The translations under genes were made by a program, and so were the position numbers. A DNA stretch of 12,956 nt from a virus (lineage: Duplodnaviria; Heunggongvirae; Uroviricota; Caudoviricetes), in the IMG/VR virus record IMGVR_UViG_2531839252_000007; one strand, given 5' to 3'. The notes beneath the pieces are model-generated. The model was not told where the DNA came from. It worked only from the letters and a program-made list of their open reading frames with translations, and did not search any database. This document shows, in pieces, positions 1,261 through 12,338 of the stretch. Position 1 is the stretch's first letter. The number at the start of each line of letters is the position of its first letter.

Positions 1261-1275
1261 AAGTTTTGTTTGAAG

Positions 1276-1380
1276 GTATTCACCCTATTCACCTTTTTAA
1301 TTAACTTCATGATTTTAAATAATAAAAAAGGGTGAATACTTACAGTAAAACTAATCACCTTAGTATTCACCTGTTCACCT
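1276..1380. repeat. Iteron cluster (TATTCACC/TGTTCACC octamers, direct and inverted) with AT-rich tract; putative ori of a P4-like replicon
   Basis: Octamer copies at about 1277-1284, 1286-1293, 1364-1371 and 1372-1379 (+), 1331-1338 (inverted, GGTGAATA), and a degenerate AATCACC at 1353-1359. An AT-rich stretch at 1294-1329 lies between them. The same motif family recurs at 11742-11843. Confidence 0.6.
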
Positions 1381-1452
1381 TCTAAAGCTGCTGTGGCTGC
1401 TCCCCTTGCCCGAAAACACGCCAGCCACCAGCGTTAAAAAATACAAAAATCA

Positions 1453-1476: not shown

Positions 1477-1571
1477 CGCCAGCACTCACTCTACAAAACA
1501 ACCTAACTTATTGATTTCAAAAGTAGAGAAAATCTGCTTTATGCCACTAGCTCGCACCCGTCCCCAAAAAG

Positions 1572-1603: not shown

Positions 1604-1677
1604 GGGTACCGATAACCATGTTTGGAATCAACTCATTGAGTTCTGACCTCAATTTGCATGTTATCACAAGAAAAACA

Positions 1678-3417: not shown

Positions 3418-4476
3418 ATGATGAATAATTTAATCAATCGCATTGCTTTAACCTTTCTAGCGTTAGTACTCACAGGCTGCACTGCGGGGAAAATCGATCC
3501 CGCAAAAGCGTTAACACAAATGCATATCGTCAAAAGTGATGACTATAAGAAGCGCCCCGGCTGGCCTGCGTTGGTTCGTCTGGGTACTGACGATTGTGAG
3601 ACATACAAAAGTGGCGGCGGTAGCCTCTTTAAGTGGGACGGGCTGACGTGCAACGACAAAAGCATTATCCTGGCGGTTAATAGCAAACCACAGACCATTC
3701 CAGTGTTCTACGCTGCTTACCATGAATACGGGAGCTATGGGGTCGGGGAACTATCCAATTTTGACAATAGCACCCGAACAGGTGAGGAAGCCTCGAAGAT
3801 TCTGGTTAACCTGACCACAGTATTGAACAATCCGGCAAAAGTTGACGCTATCTATGCTGACTATGAAAAGGATCGTTGGAGCATGGGACTTGGTACAGTC
3901 AACGAAAGCGATTTTAAAAAGAGCCTGGCTACTTTTGCTCAGGAACGGGATAAGCTTGCCTCTGAATACCATAAATTACGTGACGCAAACCAAAAGAGAT
4001 ACCTAGCTGAACGGGACGAACGAATCAAACGTGAGAAAGAAGAGGCCATGGCCTCTGAAAAAACGATTGATCTCGTGTTATGGCAGAATCCAACAGTTGA
4101 GCAACAGATGGTTGTTGACGCTCTGCACACTATTAAATTCACAATAAGAAACGATGGCGTGGCATACGCTAACGGTCGCCGATTTATGTCAATTGCCGGG
4201 ATGGAATATCTCAGGAATAGCCTAGCTCTGAGTATGGAGTCATGTTCAGACGCTGGGGCATATGTTGGTGATACGGCATTAAATCGCGCATGTATTCAGG
4301 GCTTGGCGAGGAACATTGTTGAGTGGGGGAAAACCGCCAACGACCGTTCTATTTCAGACAGAGCATGGAACGCAGCCGCAATGGATGGCAGCATTAACTA
4401 CAACCCAATCAAGTATGAAATCCTGTTTTCACATTGGGCAGGAATGGCCCGTGTCTACTCTGCTCGTGGATATTAA
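3418..4476 (+). CDS. Lipoprotein (352 aa) with signal peptide, lipobox and charged coiled-coil-like segment
   Basis: The N-terminus MMNNLINRIALTFLALVLTGC has a hydrophobic core and an L-T-G-C lipobox. An AAGGA Shine-Dalgarno lies upstream. The middle region KLRDANQKRYLAERDERIKREKEEAMASEK is coiled-coil-like. Confidence 0.85.
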   Translation: MMNNLINRIALTFLALVLTGCTAGKIDPAKALTQMHIVKSDDYKKRPGWPALVRLGTDDCETYKSGGGSLFKWDGLTCNDKSIILAVNSKPQTIPVFYAAYHEYGSYGVGELSNFDNSTRTGEEASKILVNLTTVLNNPAKVDAIYADYEKDRWSMGLGTVNESDFKKSLATFAQERDKLASEYHKLRDANQKRYLAERDERIKREKEEAMASEKTIDLVLWQNPTVEQQMVVDALHTIKFTIRNDGVAYANGRRFMSIAGMEYLRNSLALSMESCSDAGAYVGDTALNRACIQGLARNIVEWGKTANDRSISDRAWNAAAMDGSINYNPIKYEILFSHWAGMARVYSARGY

Positions 4477-4526
4477 ACACTGCGCTTCGAACTGATAAAT
4501 TTAAGCTTAATCAGTACATTACTGTT

Positions 4527-4552
4527 AGCCCGCATTTTAGCGGGCTTTCTTT
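4527..4552 (+). terminator. Rho-independent terminator after the lipoprotein gene
   Basis: Stem AGCCCGC(4527-4533), loop ATTTTA, stem GCGGGCT(4540-4546), followed by TTCTTT. Confidence 0.7.
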
Positions 4553-4569
4553 AGTTGAGCTTTGTACAA

Positions 4570-4585
4570 GATGTAAATTTACATC
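4570..4585. repeat. Perfect 16-bp palindrome GATGTAAATTTACATC
   Basis: Self-complementary and AT-rich. It sits between convergent genes, about 35 nt past the stop of the minus-strand peptidase gene. It could be a minus-strand terminator hairpin or a binding site. Confidence 0.5.
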
Positions 4586-4618
4586 CTGATTATCCAGTGC
4601 GCCGTAAAAGCTGGCAAT

Positions 4619-5731
4619 CTATTTAACTAAACGTAAATGTGACGGGCGTATCCCCGATTCCTGGGTACTCGATTTTCCACCATTGATAGCTTCCATAAAG
4701 AAGCTGTTACTGAAAGTAAGTGCACTCGCTTCGTCCGCAGGTAACCTCAACTGCTCGAGAATATCTCCCCTTTTAACGCCTTTGCTGCGTAGGGCTGAAA
4801 ACACTTTATCCAGCACTAATGACTTTTCACGTTCAGCAATCCCTTGAGGCTCACTCGTACGATATCCACGGCGAGCAAGTTCTATCGATAGCTGTCGATA
4901 ATGCCATTCGGTAGATAAACCGACATCAAACGTACGGCGCACCAAAGCCGCCAATGATACCCGCCAGTTCTTTTTTAACGAGATGAGTAGATCAAGCGAT
5001 GGCATTCTTGGCACTAAAGCTAAAATACTACGCTCAGGCATCAAAAAGGCCGATGCGAATCGATCTGCATCCTGCTCAGCTTGGCGGCCGTTGTTAGTTG
5101 AATGTTTATGGAGAACCAAGTGCCCCAGTTCATGAGCTGCATCGAATCGACTACGCTCCGGCGTTTTCATTGTATTCAAAAGCACAAAAGGTTTTTCATC
5201 CATCCAGAAAGAAAAGGCGTCTACTTCAATACAATTTTCCGCGAGAGAGAACACACGGACCCCATTAGCTTCAAGAAGATGGACCATGTTAGAGATGGAT
5301 AATTCACCTATCCCCCAACTTTCTCTAACCACGCGAGCAGCTCGCTCAGGCTCAGAATAACCATCGAAACTACAATCAGGTACATTAGGTTTAGGAAGCT
5401 TAAACTGCCCGTCAATCCAAGCTGATAGCTCTTGCGCGAGCTTTCCGGCTCCGAGTGCTGAGTCCCTTTTCTGTGCCGTCAACTTTGTCATTGCACGGAA
5501 ACTAACGGCTTCTGGCGACAGAGTAGGTACATCCCTGTCGAGGAAGAACTCAATCGGATAGCCCAGAACAGCAGAAATCCGTTCCATGGTATCGCTGGCT
5601 ATGGCATCAAAAATCCCTGCTTTCTCGTAATTCGAAATCGTCTTACTAGTCAATTCTGTAGCTTCAGCTAAAGCTCTTTGTGTCAGGCCTCTCCGTTCTC
5701 TGGCTATACGTAAACGCTCTGAATTAAACAT
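4619..5731 (-). CDS. XRE-family HTH fused to ImmA/IrrE-type (M78, COG2856-like) zinc metallopeptidase, with C-terminal extension of about 130 aa
   Basis: N-terminal HTH LTQRALAEATELTSKTISNYEKAG. HELGH at residues 200-204 (nt 5120-5134, verified by reverse-complement translation). Followed by EQDADRFASAFLMP, the characteristic ImmA/IrrE E-x-x-A-x-x-F-A-x-x-x-L-x-P signature. Starts 9 nt after the upstream gene stop. Confidence 0.9.
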   Translation of the reverse strand: MFNSERLRIARERRGLTQRALAEATELTSKTISNYEKAGIFDAIASDTMERISAVLGYPIEFFLDRDVPTLSPEAVSFRAMTKLTAQKRDSALGAGKLAQELSAWIDGQFKLPKPNVPDCSFDGYSEPERAARVVRESWGIGELSISNMVHLLEANGVRVFSLAENCIEVDAFSFWMDEKPFVLLNTMKTPERSRFDAAHELGHLVLHKHSTNNGRQAEQDADRFASAFLMPERSILALVPRMPSLDLLISLKKNWRVSLAALVRRTFDVGLSTEWHYRQLSIELARRGYRTSEPQGIAEREKSLVLDKVFSALRSKGVKRGDILEQLRLPADEASALTFSNSFFMEAINGGKSSTQESGIRPSHLRLVK

Positions 5732-5740
5732 GGTGCATAT

Positions 5741-6460
5741 TTAGCCTGTTTTTAAAATGTCGAGATCGATATCCGGTGTAAACTGCGGTACATCACCGTT
5801 CTGAACAATAGGGTCAGGTTGATGAGGAGCAATAATTAAACGTGTGGAGAAGGCATTAACTACATTCTTGTTATTGTATGAAATCGGGCGTGAAAGCTCA
5901 GCTCGGATCCCCACGCGCTCATCCCCGTCAATTTCATAAAAATCGTAAAGTAAAAACCATAAGTCCAGTCCGATTTTATTCGGTAGCAGTGGTATAACAT
6001 CACCTTCCGGCATGTCTAAATCCAGCTTAAGCTGGCTATCATCCAGGATAAGCTCACCCTGACCCGGGGTGTTATTATGGATTAACCCCATCAGCTCACA
6101 AGTAAAATCACCTTTCTTCATGCGAGACTCAGGAAATCCATGAACCAAACCTGTCTGATCACACCCCCGGCAGAGGTAAAGGGCAACTTTATCACTTACA
6201 GTCAGTTCAACATTTCGCAGGGACAGACGTTTGTAGCCTTTCGGAGCCAGAATGTCGCGGGCTGCACTCACCCCCTCACCATAGAAATATTGCCCACGTG
6301 AGGTCTTGGGGTGATTCTGAGTCGTCGAATAACGACCAGACAAGCCACGCTCAAGAATACGCCTGAGATCACTTTGGCTCAGATTCAGGGACTGCAGGTA
6401 GGATTCAACATCGTCAGGATCTGCCAAAACAATGGTTTTTGCGAGATTATGAGAGTACAT
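5741..6460 (-). CDS. Hypothetical protein (239 aa), first gene of minus-strand cargo operon
   Basis: ATG at 6458-6460 with an AAGAGG Shine-Dalgarno 8 nt upstream. No recognisable family. Co-oriented with, and 9 nt upstream of, the HTH-peptidase gene. Confidence 0.8.
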   Translation of the reverse strand: MYSHNLAKTIVLADPDDVESYLQSLNLSQSDLRRILERGLSGRYSTTQNHPKTSRGQYFYGEGVSAARDILAPKGYKRLSLRNVELTVSDKVALYLCRGCDQTGLVHGFPESRMKKGDFTCELMGLIHNNTPGQGELILDDSQLKLDLDMPEGDVIPLLPNKIGLDLWFLLYDFYEIDGDERVGIRAELSRPISYNNKNVVNAFSTRLIIAPHQPDPIVQNGDVPQFTPDIDLDILKTG

Positions 6461-6520: not shown

Positions 6521-6666
6521 AAATCACTGTATAAAATCTCAGAGATAATCGACAGATTAGAGAGTATTATCCATATTGAGGCTATCCCGACGGGGAGAAA
6601 AGCGGCTACGCCTTGCCGCCTGCCTCCCCCATTATCTCAAGGCGGTGACGTGTAAGGCGAACGTGC

Positions 6667-8177: not shown

Positions 8178-8378
8178 ATGGCTAAGCCGCAGTGTACCCA
8201 AACTCACCCCAAATATCAGTATCGTTTTATGGCGCTCGATCGCGCTGACCGCCAGGCAAAACCCTGCAAAATCATTGTTGAGGCCACCAGCGAGCACGAA
8301 GCGCGTAAAGTGCTGGCTCCTCACTACATCCTGTCACTGTCCGCCGTTTTGCCAGTTCAGGAGGTGAGCCATGTTTAA
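8178..8378 (+). CDS. Small hypothetical protein (66 aa), first gene of replication-module operon
   Basis: GGAGA Shine-Dalgarno 9 nt upstream. The operon is tightly packed. Confidence 0.65.
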   Translation: MAKPQCTQTHPKYQYRFMALDRADRQAKPCKIIVEATSEHEARKVLAPHYILSLSAVLPVQEVSHV

Positions 8379-9047: not shown

Positions 9048-9268
9048 TGCCACGCAAACATCGCTCATCAAGCAACCTGATCAAATTAATGGAACGCCAG
9101 AAAGGTATAGGGCGCGACGATATCCAGATCGCAGATAATCGCCCTACATTCATGCCGTACGAGCCGAACGGAACCTACGCCACAAACCGCCATACCCGCC
9201 GTATGCTACGCAAGCTCCACGGCATCCAGGCAAAAAGAATGTGTGATCTGAAAGGAGGTCAGAAATGA
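9047..9268 (+). CDS. Small basic hypothetical protein (73 aa)
   Basis: AGGGAGG Shine-Dalgarno upstream. TAATG start/stop overlap with the upstream gene and ATGA overlap with the primase gene. Confidence 0.65.
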   Translation: MPRKHRSSSNLIKLMERQKGIGRDDIQIADNRPTFMPYEPNGTYATNRHTRRMLRKLHGIQAKRMCDLKGGQK

Positions 9269-11679
9269 TTGGATTCGATCACCTGATGGAGCAGGGGCAG
9301 AAACGCACCCCTGCTCGTTTTACTGCAAATAGCTTTTCTGACCTGTGCAACGCTATTCTATCGCATCGTGTGCAAATTTCCATCACCCCAGAAATGACAG
9401 ATGAAGAGCGACGTAAGGAAAAGCAGAAACTGTACTGGTTCTCGGCAACTACCCAGCAGGACGGGCAGCGACGTAAACCCGAAAACATGGCACCGTGTGC
9501 TTTCGGTATGCTGGACATTGACGGCAGCACTCCCGGTGCAATCACAGCACTTGTACAGGTGTTCCGGCGATACTCAATGCTGGTGTACCAGACGGCCAGC
9601 TATACGGCGGATGAACCTCGTCTGCGTATTGTGTGCGAGCTTTCCCGAGCGGTTGAATCTGACTACCGCCGAGCGACAGGCGAATCCATAGAAACTTTGT
9701 TGATGCAGGAGGCTGGATTCTCATTCGCCAGCCTGGCGGATAAGAAAGCACGCTGGGAGAACGGCAGCGATTATGTTGTCTTTGACCGCAATGTATACGG
9801 CGCTCAAAGCTATTGCTACTGTCCACACTCTGGAGCGAAAGCCCAGAATTACGCGGGCGCGGTAATCGACGTAGGGGCGTTACCGGAACCCGCCCAGCTA
9901 CCAGCGAAGGCGGCCAAAAGCAAGGCAAAGAAACAGCGCCAGCGTGACGCCGCGGCGGTAATAGATGCTGATTTTGACGATCTGAGCGCCGGACCGGATA
10001 ACTTCCTTATCGCCGACCTGCGCAGCGCACTCTGGTTTCCCTCCATGCTGCAAAAGGCATGGGACAATGGGGCGTGGATTGAGCAGGGCTACCGCCTTGC
10101 ATCTCTCAAAGGCACCGATTTTGAGGACGACGCGCGGCAGCTGTGGGTCGAGTGGTCATTGACCGCGGCGGATGGCTGGCCTGATGAAGAACTTGATGAA
10201 GTCGCAGCACAACGCTGGGATGGTCTCGCCCCTGACAAAACCAGCTATAAAGCTATTTTTACTGATGCTCAGGCGCAGGGGTGGAATAATCCGAGCACAT
10301 GGCGAGCAAAGGCCGCGTACATTGAGAAAATGGCCCCCAGCACACGCGGTGAACTGCTAGCGCAATATTACGGCAACGTATGCCTGAAAGCTGATGGCAA
10401 CATGGTTTATCACTATACCGGGCAGGGGTGGGAGCACATCGCCGATGCCGAGTTGCGCCGCCAGCTTTCGCATATTTTCAAAGATAACGGGGTCCCCTTT
10501 ACACCGTACGAGGTTAAAAGCGCGATTGAGGCTATGGGAATGCTTCTGCCTTTAATGGGAGAAACTCCTCGTAACCTGATTGGCTTTGCCAACGGCGTTT
10601 ATGATCTCGAGGCGCAGCGATTCCGCCCCCACTGCCCAGACGATTGGCTGACCAGCCATAACGGCGTTGAATACACGCAACCGGTTAAAGGCGAAACCCT
10701 GAAAAACAATGCCCCAAACTTCTGGCGCTGGCTGCATCATTCCGCAGGGGGCGACTTCGACAAAATGGAGAGAATCAAAGCCGCTCTGTATATGGTGCTG
10801 GCAAACCGCTACGACTGGCAACTGTTCATCGAGGTTACCGGTGCTGGTGGCAGTGGTAAAAGCGTGTTCACGGGTATTGCACGTATGCTGACGGGCGAAC
10901 TACACGCCACCAGCGGCACAATGGAGGACATGGACACCGCGCGCGAACGCGCATCTTTTGTCGGCAAAAGCCTGATCACCCTACCCGACCAAGCAACATA
11001 TACGGGTTCCGGGCCGGGTATCAAGGCTATAACGGGCGGCGACGTGGTAAGGATCGACCCAAAGCACGAAAAGCCATTCCATACGGTTATTCGCGCCGTT
11101 GTCATCGCAACAAACAACGAACCTATGCGTTTCACCGAACGACAAGGCGGGATATCGCGGCGCCGGGTTATTTTCCCGTTTAACCATGAAGTGCCGGAGG
11201 CGGAACGTGATCCCCATCTGCTCGATAAAATTAAAGCCGAACTGCCGGTAATCGTCCGTGGTCTGCTGATTGACTTCGAACAGCCAGGCAAAGCCAAATC
11301 GCTACTTATCGCGCAGCGTGATTCAGCGGAAGCGCTGCAGGTGAAGAACGATAACGACCCGATGTATGGCTTTTGCTCTTACCTGCTAGGTTTGCCGAAT
11401 CCCGAGGGCATGTACATGGGCGATGGGCGCATGGCGCGAGAGCCACGCATCTACCTCTATCATGCTTATCTGGCCTATCTGGAAGCCTACGGTTATCAGA
11501 GAACCCCCACCCTGCCAAAGTTCAGCGGAGATTTACGGGACACGCTCAAAGCCTTTGGTATTACTCTGGACAGTAAAAAGAGTAAAAAGGGCAAAAGATA
11601 TAACGTCAATTTGTCTGACAGGGCACAAGAATGGCTGGGAGAAGACGAACTCTCAGCTGTGCCCGACACATTGCAGTAA
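9265..11679 (+). CDS. Replication primase/helicase (N-terminal AEP/prim-pol-like domain, P4-family/D5-like SF3 helicase domain)
   Basis: 804 aa with an AAAGGAGG Shine-Dalgarno. Walker A VTGAGGSGKS at residues 526-533 (nt 10840-10863) sits in the middle, as in P4 alpha and D5-type helicases. N-terminal MLDIDG (nt 9508-9525) is an acidic D-x-D motif consistent with an AEP-type primase. Confidence 0.85.
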   Translation: MIGFDHLMEQGQKRTPARFTANSFSDLCNAILSHRVQISITPEMTDEERRKEKQKLYWFSATTQQDGQRRKPENMAPCAFGMLDIDGSTPGAITALVQVFRRYSMLVYQTASYTADEPRLRIVCELSRAVESDYRRATGESIETLLMQEAGFSFASLADKKARWENGSDYVVFDRNVYGAQSYCYCPHSGAKAQNYAGAVIDVGALPEPAQLPAKAAKSKAKKQRQRDAAAVIDADFDDLSAGPDNFLIADLRSALWFPSMLQKAWDNGAWIEQGYRLASLKGTDFEDDARQLWVEWSLTAADGWPDEELDEVAAQRWDGLAPDKTSYKAIFTDAQAQGWNNPSTWRAKAAYIEKMAPSTRGELLAQYYGNVCLKADGNMVYHYTGQGWEHIADAELRRQLSHIFKDNGVPFTPYEVKSAIEAMGMLLPLMGETPRNLIGFANGVYDLEAQRFRPHCPDDWLTSHNGVEYTQPVKGETLKNNAPNFWRWLHHSAGGDFDKMERIKAALYMVLANRYDWQLFIEVTGAGGSGKSVFTGIARMLTGELHATSGTMEDMDTARERASFVGKSLITLPDQATYTGSGPGIKAITGGDVVRIDPKHEKPFHTVIRAVVIATNNEPMRFTERQGGISRRRVIFPFNHEVPEAERDPHLLDKIKAELPVIVRGLLIDFEQPGKAKSLLIAQRDSAEALQVKNDNDPMYGFCSYLLGLPNPEGMYMGDGRMAREPRIYLYHAYLAYLEAYGYQRTPTLPKFSGDLRDTLKAFGITLDSKKSKKGKRYNVNLSDRAQEWLGEDELSAVPDTLQ

Positions 11680-11700: not shown

Positions 11701-11722
11701 CCCCGTAAATCGGGGCTTTTGT
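11701..11722 (+). terminator. Rho-independent terminator after the primase/helicase gene
   Basis: CCCCG stem, TAAAT loop, CGGGG stem, then CTTTTGT, starting 22 nt after the stop. Confidence 0.7.
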
Positions 11723-11741
11723 CTATTTATTAGTCTGAAAG

Positions 11742-11852
11742 GGTGAACAGGTGCGCATACCTTAACAAAGCTGTTCACTCTAATAATTTTCTTTAATATC
11801 AGTACACTACCCGCAATAAGTGAACAGATGGACGGGGTGAACACTTCACACC
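11742..11852. repeat. Second iteron cluster (TGTTCACC family); putative crr-like cis replication region
   Basis: GGTGAACA at 11742-11749 and 11836-11843 (perfect reverse complements of TGTTCACC). TGTTCACT at 11772-11779 and AGTGAACA at 11819-11826 (one mismatch each). Degenerate CTTCACACC at 11844-11852. Confidence 0.6.
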
Positions 11853-12338
11853 TATAGCGCGAAATATTTTAATATTTGCAGTTGAATTGCAATCCTTGAA
11901 AACAGAAACGCGTAGCAAAACGTAGAGTGCTGAAAAAATTTTGTTGGGGAGCAGTTCAAACTGCATGAGCAATTTTCAAGCACTCCTCTTTGTCTTGTAC
12001 CCAAGACTGTACCCAATAGAAAAAATAGAAAATAAAAACTCAGCAATAGCAGCGATTGGTGCCACTACTCAACATTCAGATTCATAAGCGACATATCTCC
12101 GTAGGCCGTTGTTAATTACAGCGGCGCTACGCATATAGTTTCGTCCTCATATTTATTTACTCCATACTTTTTCTAATGCATTTTACTTATCACAAAATCA
12201 GAAAAATGCATTCTTACTACAGAAAATAGCAATTTCACATAACTACAAATTATCAATCTATTCTCTCCTTAAAAAATCTCAATCGTGACAATGCGCACAA
12301 ATCGCTACCCTTCCAGACAGATTTTTAGGGAGAGAACC

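Follow-up and report, generated by a model that had tools for sequence, protein, structure and literature searches.

Positions 1277-1379 of the window (the whole stretch of DNA that was analysed, 12,956 nucleotides) very probably hold a complete module A of a P4/PICI-family replicon, which, judging from sequence comparisons and by analogy with known members of the family, would form a bipartite origin of the alpha type together with module B, a second iteron cluster located past the primase-helicase gene. The window corresponds to a ~12.3-kb integrase/AlpA/primase island that is inserted into E. coli yicC at its 3' end. The architecture of the cluster at 1277-1379 somewhat favors its assignment as the crr-type partner, and by architecture the second cluster would be the module of the P4-ori type. 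Initiation may take place at module A as well, as its spacer is the most easily melted stretch of the window. The earlier note had read the cluster as a replication origin; primase homology, the relatives of the island and the geometry of the modules support that reading and refine it to the crr-type half of an origin. The E. coli island would thereby gain a concrete replicon, consisting of one initiator and two defined cis modules. Systems of this kind are already known from P4 and related islands, and the island is a further example that will not surprise a specialist.

An iteron array with an A+T-rich spacer follows the integrase gene

The array begins 17 nt past the integrase stop codon (1258-1260), immediately downstream of the gene as previously described, and no ORF of at least 50 aa in the ORF list of the window overlaps 1261-1405. 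It is built from the following elements:

1277-1284 and 1286-1293, + strand: left iteron pair of module A, TATTCACC-C-TATTCACC (sequence, motif count)
about 1294-1330: spacer of module A, 37 bp, 89% A+T, candidate unwinding element
1331-1338, - strand: inverted iteron, reading GGTGAATA on the + strand (sequence, alignments)
1352-1359, + strand: degenerate iteron TAATCACC, 13 nt past the inverted iteron
1364-1379, + strand: right iteron pair, two abutting sites, TATTCACC (1364-1371) and TGTTCACC (1372-1379)

Six octamers of the (T/G)(A/G)TTCACC family had been claimed for this region. Five exact T(A/G)TTCACC sites in both orientations are indeed present in the window sequence, but the sixth site, TAATCACC at 1352, is degenerate, as it departs from the family at one position; relatives of the island carry TATTCACC or TGTTCACC at exactly this place. 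The TRTTCACC octamer is enriched in the window, where it has seven matches as compared to 0.58 expected from 200 dinucleotide-preserving shuffles of the window, none of which reached seven. Outside the cluster it occurs only at 11742 and 11836, downstream of the primase-helicase gene, which agrees with what had been noted earlier. An unbiased scan of the 12,956 bp for 7-mers that occur at least four times within 160 bp returned two places only, and these are the two clusters. Across 66 kb of E. coli host DNA the background is 0.106 octamers per kb, with a maximum of one per 110 bp; the cluster contains five exact sites in 103 bp. A chance origin of the octamer cluster is ruled out by the shuffles and the host background.

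The AT-rich tract that had been described among the octamers, at 1293-1329, is the least stable 37-bp duplex of the window, with a nearest-neighbour dG of -35.8 (mean -51.0, sd 4.4). No DnaA box is located near module A or module B, and neither module matched an Rfam family at the gathering threshold, the sole match in the window being the int-alpA RNA at 6575-6642. A full-text literature search for the string TGTTCACC retrieved unrelated primer lists only.

The intergenic DNA past module A (1381-1760) contains a perfect 24-bp palindrome at 1453-1476, within a terminator-like hairpin at 1451-1478, and a second such hairpin at 1573-1603 with runs of T and A on both sides. The IHF consensus WATCAANNNNTTR has only two matches in the window, at 1504-1516 (- strand) and 1626-1638 (+ strand).

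The island encodes a predicted iteron-binding initiator

The gene located near the opposite end of the island encodes a primase-helicase that is related to the alpha protein of P4:

9265-11679, + strand: primase-helicase of the P4 alpha/D5 family, 804 aa (Pfam D5_N, DUF5906 and Pox_D5; TIGR01613, 'primase, P4 family')
11350-11637, + strand: its C-terminal winged-helix origin-binding domain, aa 696-791 (phmmer against PDB 1KA8)

Over aa 314-791 the protein and P4 alpha share 43.5% identity, and a phmmer search links aa 696-791 to 1KA8, the solved origin-binding domain of P4, with E = 5.8e-16; the helix YLYHAYLAY is conserved between the two. The wing of the island domain has the motif KKSKKGKRYN, which fits the pattern of relatives with iterons of the TGTTCACC type. 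The primase-helicase is predicted to be the iteron-binding initiator of the island, and the module A array is the predicted target of its C-terminal winged-helix domain.

The N-terminal third of the protein (9265-10320, aa 1-352) is not of the zinc-finger/Toprim primase type found in P4 alpha. Residues 14-351 resemble protein P3 of phage APSE (about 31% identity), and the N-terminal ~350 aa have no Pfam or NCBIfam match and only 7 homologues among 5.8 billion proteins. Invariant in this region are FG..D.D (aa 80-86) and residues T110, A111 and S112 of a TASH stretch in which H113 varies; these we take to be reminiscent of primase-polymerase (AEP) motifs. An AlphaFold model of the region is poor (pLDDT 51.5), and a Foldseek search of the PDB with this model returned nothing significant, the best match having E = 0.065 and the LigD polymerase domain E = 0.13. 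In IMG/VR, a search for the same full-length primase returned one locus, L085, which shares the N-terminal domain only (70% identity). The iterons of L085 differ, with TGAAACA near position 10,330 of that locus, a place that is presumably past its primase gene.

Modules A and B align with crr and ori of phage P4

A second iteron cluster begins 63 bp past the stop codon of the primase-helicase gene and is arranged as follows:

11701-11721, + strand: terminator-like hairpin 3' of the primase-helicase gene, laid out as in P4 (alpha terminator, then iterons)
11742-11843: module B (P4-ori type), 4-5 sites, alignable both to P4 ori and to the second half of the origin in the EHEC island L004
11742: iteron GGTGAACA
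11751: degenerate iteron GGTGCGCA
11772, + strand: iteron TGTTCACT
11780-11818: A+T-rich spacer, 39 bp
11819: iteron AGTGAACA
11836: iteron GGTGAACA

Only two of the octamers in module B are perfect, and allowing one mismatch adds TGTTCACT at 11772 and 11819 to the cluster. Its spacer region ranks sixth in the window in duplex instability. Modules A and B are 10.4 kb apart in the chromosome, whereas in the excised circle they are separated by ~1.7 kb, across attP and int. Three one-mismatch iteron variants are also present within 160 bp inside the primase gene (10823-10980), and in P4 an internal ori2 is located within the alpha gene. The variants in the island are probably a product of chance, as the number of one-mismatch sites outside the two clusters is that predicted by chance.

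The octamer had been taken for the type I iteron bound by P4 alpha at ori and crr, and the GenBank record of P4 bears this out: TGTTCACC and GGTGAACA, as well as the variants TGTTCACA, GGTGAATA and TCTTCACC, are annotated there as 'ori type 1 repeat' in ori (9310-9413) and crr (4291-4590). According to the same record, crr lies directly past the alpha terminator and adjoins attP. Window positions 1268-1390 align with both P4 crr repeats and with module A of L004, whereas positions 11732-11856 align with P4 ori and with module B of L004. Judged by these alignments, P4 crr is a duplicated module A and P4 ori a single module B. Beyond the GenBank annotation, the P4 literature describes binding of the iterons by alpha and looping of the DNA, and replication of P4 requires both ori and crr in cis.

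The island thus shares with P4 clustered, non-coding type I octamers in both orientations, two separate iteron clusters that align to crr and ori, respectively, and an alpha-like primase/SF3 helicase whose C-terminal winged-helix domain is homologous to the P4 origin-binding domain. Module A resembles P4 crr in its octamer family, including GGTGAATA, and in the succession of a pair, a spacer, an inverted iteron and further iterons. It differs in that the spacer is 37 bp instead of 35 bp, the right half contains three direct sites, and TATTCACC predominates rather than TGTTCACC. Furthermore, P4 crr consists of two 120-bp direct repeats downstream of alpha, whereas the island has one unit only, which follows the integrase gene. 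The P4 ori (ori1, between ORF88/vis and sid) combines the octamer with an iteron-flanked A+T-rich tract, as does the island, and its order of a run of inverted sites, a direct site, a spacer and two inverted sites is that of module B; the cluster at 1277-1379 does not have this arrangement. The location of module B also differs, as it lies 4.7 kb upstream of the alpha stop codon in P4 and just past the primase gene in the island.

The iterons of related islands accompany the primase gene and share one module geometry

The relatives comprise 80 loci from Enterobacterales (including Xenorhabdus, Photorhabdus, Klebsiella, Pectobacterium, Serratia and others) in which the helicase and binding-domain half of the primase is 46-60% identical to that of the island. 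In 52 of the 80 loci, the only cluster of at least three TRTTCACC octamers within ±10 kb begins 25-100 bp past the primase stop codon. When each locus is represented by its own most frequent 7-mer downstream of the primase, ~65 of the 80 have a single cluster at +15 to +260 bp past the stop codon and none elsewhere within ±10 kb. These positions support the view that the iterons travel with the primase gene and not with the integrase. The closest primase relative from outside E. coli (L005, 60% identity in the C-terminal part) has no recognisable iterons.

Canonical relatives have an origin composed of two adjacent modules of ~105 bp, A and B. Module A consists of an iteron pair, a 35-bp A+T-rich spacer, an inverted iteron, 13 bp, an iteron, 3-4 bp and two iterons, and module B of 2-3 inverted iterons, 13 bp, a direct iteron, a ~36-bp A+T-rich spacer and two inverted iterons. 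The island cluster follows the former order, with a pair, the 37-bp spacer, an inverted site, 13 bp, a site, 4 bp and a pair. A regular expression for the left part of module A has two matches in P4, which are the crr repeats, one in the island, at 1277, and one per locus in 20 relatives, always 25-45 bp past the primase stop codon. The sites of the opening pair are separated by 1-2 nt in P4 crr and in these 20 relatives, and in every relative found, as in P4 crr, the spacer measures 35 bp. Window positions 1327-1381 are 85.5% identical to the DNA just past the primase gene of L004, whose primase is 48% identical to that of the island.

This geometry bears on the possibility that the array binds the primase-helicase but is mainly regulatory, acting in copy control by titration or handcuffing, or in the control of read-through from int. 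Iteron arrays outside the minimal origin are commonly copy-number regulators in plasmids, and the array is positioned between the int stop codon and the terminator-like hairpins at 1451-1478 and 1573-1603. However, it keeps the full geometry of an origin half, including the extremely A+T-rich spacer, which simple titration sites would not need, and we regard a mainly regulatory role as highly improbable.

The same geometry is shared by at least seven iteron dialects among loci L005-L084 and L088. Lineages without TGTTCACC have, in the same place, iterons of the types GTGTTCAT, T(A/C)TCTACC, TCTCCACC, CTGTCC, GTGTCTAC or TGTATACC, and TCTCTACC is also found. The dialect covaries with the wing sequence in the binding domain: a wing pattern, [KR][KRH][ST][KN].G..[STY]N, occurs together with TGTTCACC-type iterons at 56 loci and both are absent from 19, whereas six loci are discordant (four with TGTTCACC-type iterons and no pattern, two with the pattern and no such iterons). 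The pattern was derived from the data themselves and the counts are uncorrected for the phylogeny that links the loci, so they serve as supporting evidence and not as a test. The wing stretch is a candidate recognition code for this family of initiators.

In having int, alpA and pri-rep, the island resembles Gram-negative PICIs such as EcCICFT073, in which the pri-rep-ori segment drives plasmid replication (Fillol-Salom et al. 2018, PMC6092414). EcCICFT073 has the A+B geometry of the relatives, with TGTCTACC iterons, and in both EcCICFT073 and the EHEC island at the yicC site the two modules are contiguous and immediately 3' of pri-rep. In contrast, only module B (iterons, A+T-rich spacer, iterons) lies past the primase in the island studied here, module A being 10.4 kb away, and its primase has a different N-terminal domain. 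The comparison indicates that the Gram-negative PICI origin and P4 ori/crr are made up of one set of two ~105-bp modules, which PICIs have in fused form and P4-like elements as separate units; this connects two satellite families whose organisation has been described as different. A simple rule is thereby available for predicting the location of the origin and the specificity of initiator for iteron in islands that lack annotation, of which there are hundreds.

Other elements have separated modules as well. In the P4-like satellites L071, L074, L076 and L081 (Serratia, Kosakonia, Erwinia and Chimaeribacter), module A precedes the primase stop codon by 2.5-4.4 kb; L074 and L076 additionally have module B, 0.8-2.1 kb downstream of that codon, whereas L071 and L081 have the upstream module A only. 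What is particular to the island is that module A abuts the integrase gene. In the P4-like satellites module A is located just upstream of the alpA-primase operon, whereas in the island it adjoins int and is followed by ~6 kb of cargo before alpA, a layout that was seen only in this island lineage. Its position after int could be the product of a rearrangement, as most relatives have module A right after the primase.

The cluster might then be an inert relic, the displaced half of a contiguous PICI-type origin, with module B serving alone or the island no longer replicating. Consistent with this, modules A and B are adjacent right after the primase in ~65 of the 80 relatives, the layout with module A after int was seen solely in this lineage (17 of 5426 E. 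coli genomes), and the window copy lacks part of attR and the neighbouring dinD. We nevertheless consider a relic unlikely. Module A keeps all six sites (one of them degenerate) and every spacing, and it is identical in the variant of the island in strain E2348/69 despite different cargo. Module B alone amounts to half of the complement of every canonical relative, ori and crr are both needed in cis in P4, and the four P4-like satellites also carry module A kilobases upstream, two of them (L074 and L076) with module B kept downstream.

A model for initiation at the proposed bipartite origin

A functional bipartite origin could operate as follows; we infer the binding, the looping and the identity of the module that fires from P4 and PICI biology. 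AlpA-driven expression would supply the primase-helicase, which would bind the iterons of modules A and B and bring the modules together; after excision they would lie ~1.7 kb apart. An A+T-rich spacer would then melt, the SF3 helicase would load, and the same protein would prime synthesis, without DnaA. It is also conceivable, if improbable, that the split origin couples replication to excision, with its halves located at opposite ends of the integrated island, module A just within the left end and module B just within the right. Only excision and circularisation would create the ~1.7-kb path; if the halves depend on that path for productive pairing, excision itself would license the origin.

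A different repeat occupies the arms of the attachment site

The octamers might instead serve the adjacent integrase as arm-type sites in integration and excision, an alternative that the earlier note had left standing. The features that bear on it are:

1-1260, + strand: tyrosine integrase, 419 aa, with an N-terminal arm-type DNA-binding domain (Pfam Arm-DNA-bind_3, Phage_int_M and Phage_integrase)
11996-12004 and 12008-12016, + strand: two TGTACCCAA repeats, candidate P-arm integrase sites
12066-12084: what remains of the attR core; the sequence shared with the intact DEC5B island ends at 12084

The integrase is specific for the 3' end of yicC and is 79% identical to the L004 integrase and 27% to P4 Int. 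Comparison with the empty K-12 site reveals a core of ~19 bp that is duplicated at the yicC 3' end, with attL about 190 bp upstream of window position 1 and attR at ~12066-12095 (coordinates of strain DEC5B converted to window positions). Two copies of TGTACCCAA lie 70-90 bp to the left of the core in the reconstituted attP, and two more, one of them inverted, lie to its right at 110-170 bp, upstream of int. Locus L001 contains five matches to TGTACCCAA as compared to 0.13 expected, and four of these flank the att core, on both arms. A fifth copy, at 8193-8201 in the window, is located at the start of the Icd-like gene and is probably due to chance. A direct-direct-inverted trio of TGTACCCAA is conserved upstream of the L004 integrase, in otherwise diverged DNA.

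Arm sites would be compatible with the arm-type DNA-binding domain of the integrase, with the location of the array next to int and with that of the second cluster towards the opposite end of the island. However, arm-type repeats would be expected on both arms, no more than a few hundred bp away from the core, and would covary with the integrase, whereas ~1.47 kb that include the entire int gene separate the octamer cluster from the att core. P4 has the same octamer iterons even though its integrase is only 27% identical and its annotated arm repeats are of the TGCCCCC type, and in the relatives the octamers sit after the primase gene. With both arms taken up by another repeat, TGTACCCAA, we reject the octamers as arm-type sites and assign this alternative a negligible probability; the bipartite origin is the preferred reading.

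A further repeat, separate from the TGTACCCAA arm repeats, is present at L001 3820-3910 between the attL core and the integrase promoter region, where there are two copies of CTGTCGCAT(G/A)(A/T)(A/G)ATTGCA. AlpA or an excisionase may bind there.

The island and its copies in E. coli

The island is located between yicC and dinD, with a match of 99.7% in strain DEC5B (O55:H7) and a partial one in strain E2348/69. It shares with Gram-negative PICIs the genes int, alpA and pri-rep and integration at a defined place in the chromosome (the 3' end of yicC, with a duplicated core), and its genes encode the integrase, cargo proteins, an AlpA-family regulator (Phage_AlpA), an Icd-like protein and the P4-family primase-helicase. 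It was found in 17 of 5426 complete E. coli genomes, namely EPEC strain E2348/69 and 16 others. The 17 copies are nearly identical, and in the copy that was aligned base by base (E2348/69) the modules are identical to those of the window; selection on the iteron sites can therefore not be read from these copies, which are too similar for footprinting.

The window copy may no longer be able to excise, as its attR is truncated. Past the core remnant, 80 bp of unrelated sequence (12085-12164) stand in place of ~1.2 kb with dinD and lead into yicG. This junction has no match in any complete E. coli genome of the collection, and E. coli strains are only 93-95% identical to the yicG flank; the host of the window copy may be outside typical E. 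coli.

The cargo includes a gene pair at 4619-6460 (- strand), in which a 370-aa HTH/M78-peptidase protein matches the PADLOC RmrA model (E = 1e-149) and a 239-aa protein encoded upstream of it matches the RmrT model (E = 1e-52). By these matches, the pair is anti-phage defence cargo. The E2348/69 variant of the island has other genes in its place. The int-alpA RNA (RF02996) at 6575-6642 (+ strand) is matched over its full length at 46.5 bits, above the gathering threshold of 35.8, and lies upstream of a 272-aa ORF that precedes alpA. In EHEC, a different island of the PICI type occupies the same yicC site (L004; E. coli E2855, 4744-20000), and it contains genes for PerC-family regulators, SSB and ProQ/FinO as well as the contiguous A+B origin. 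The yicC site is therefore common to two types of island, whose integrases are 79% identical.
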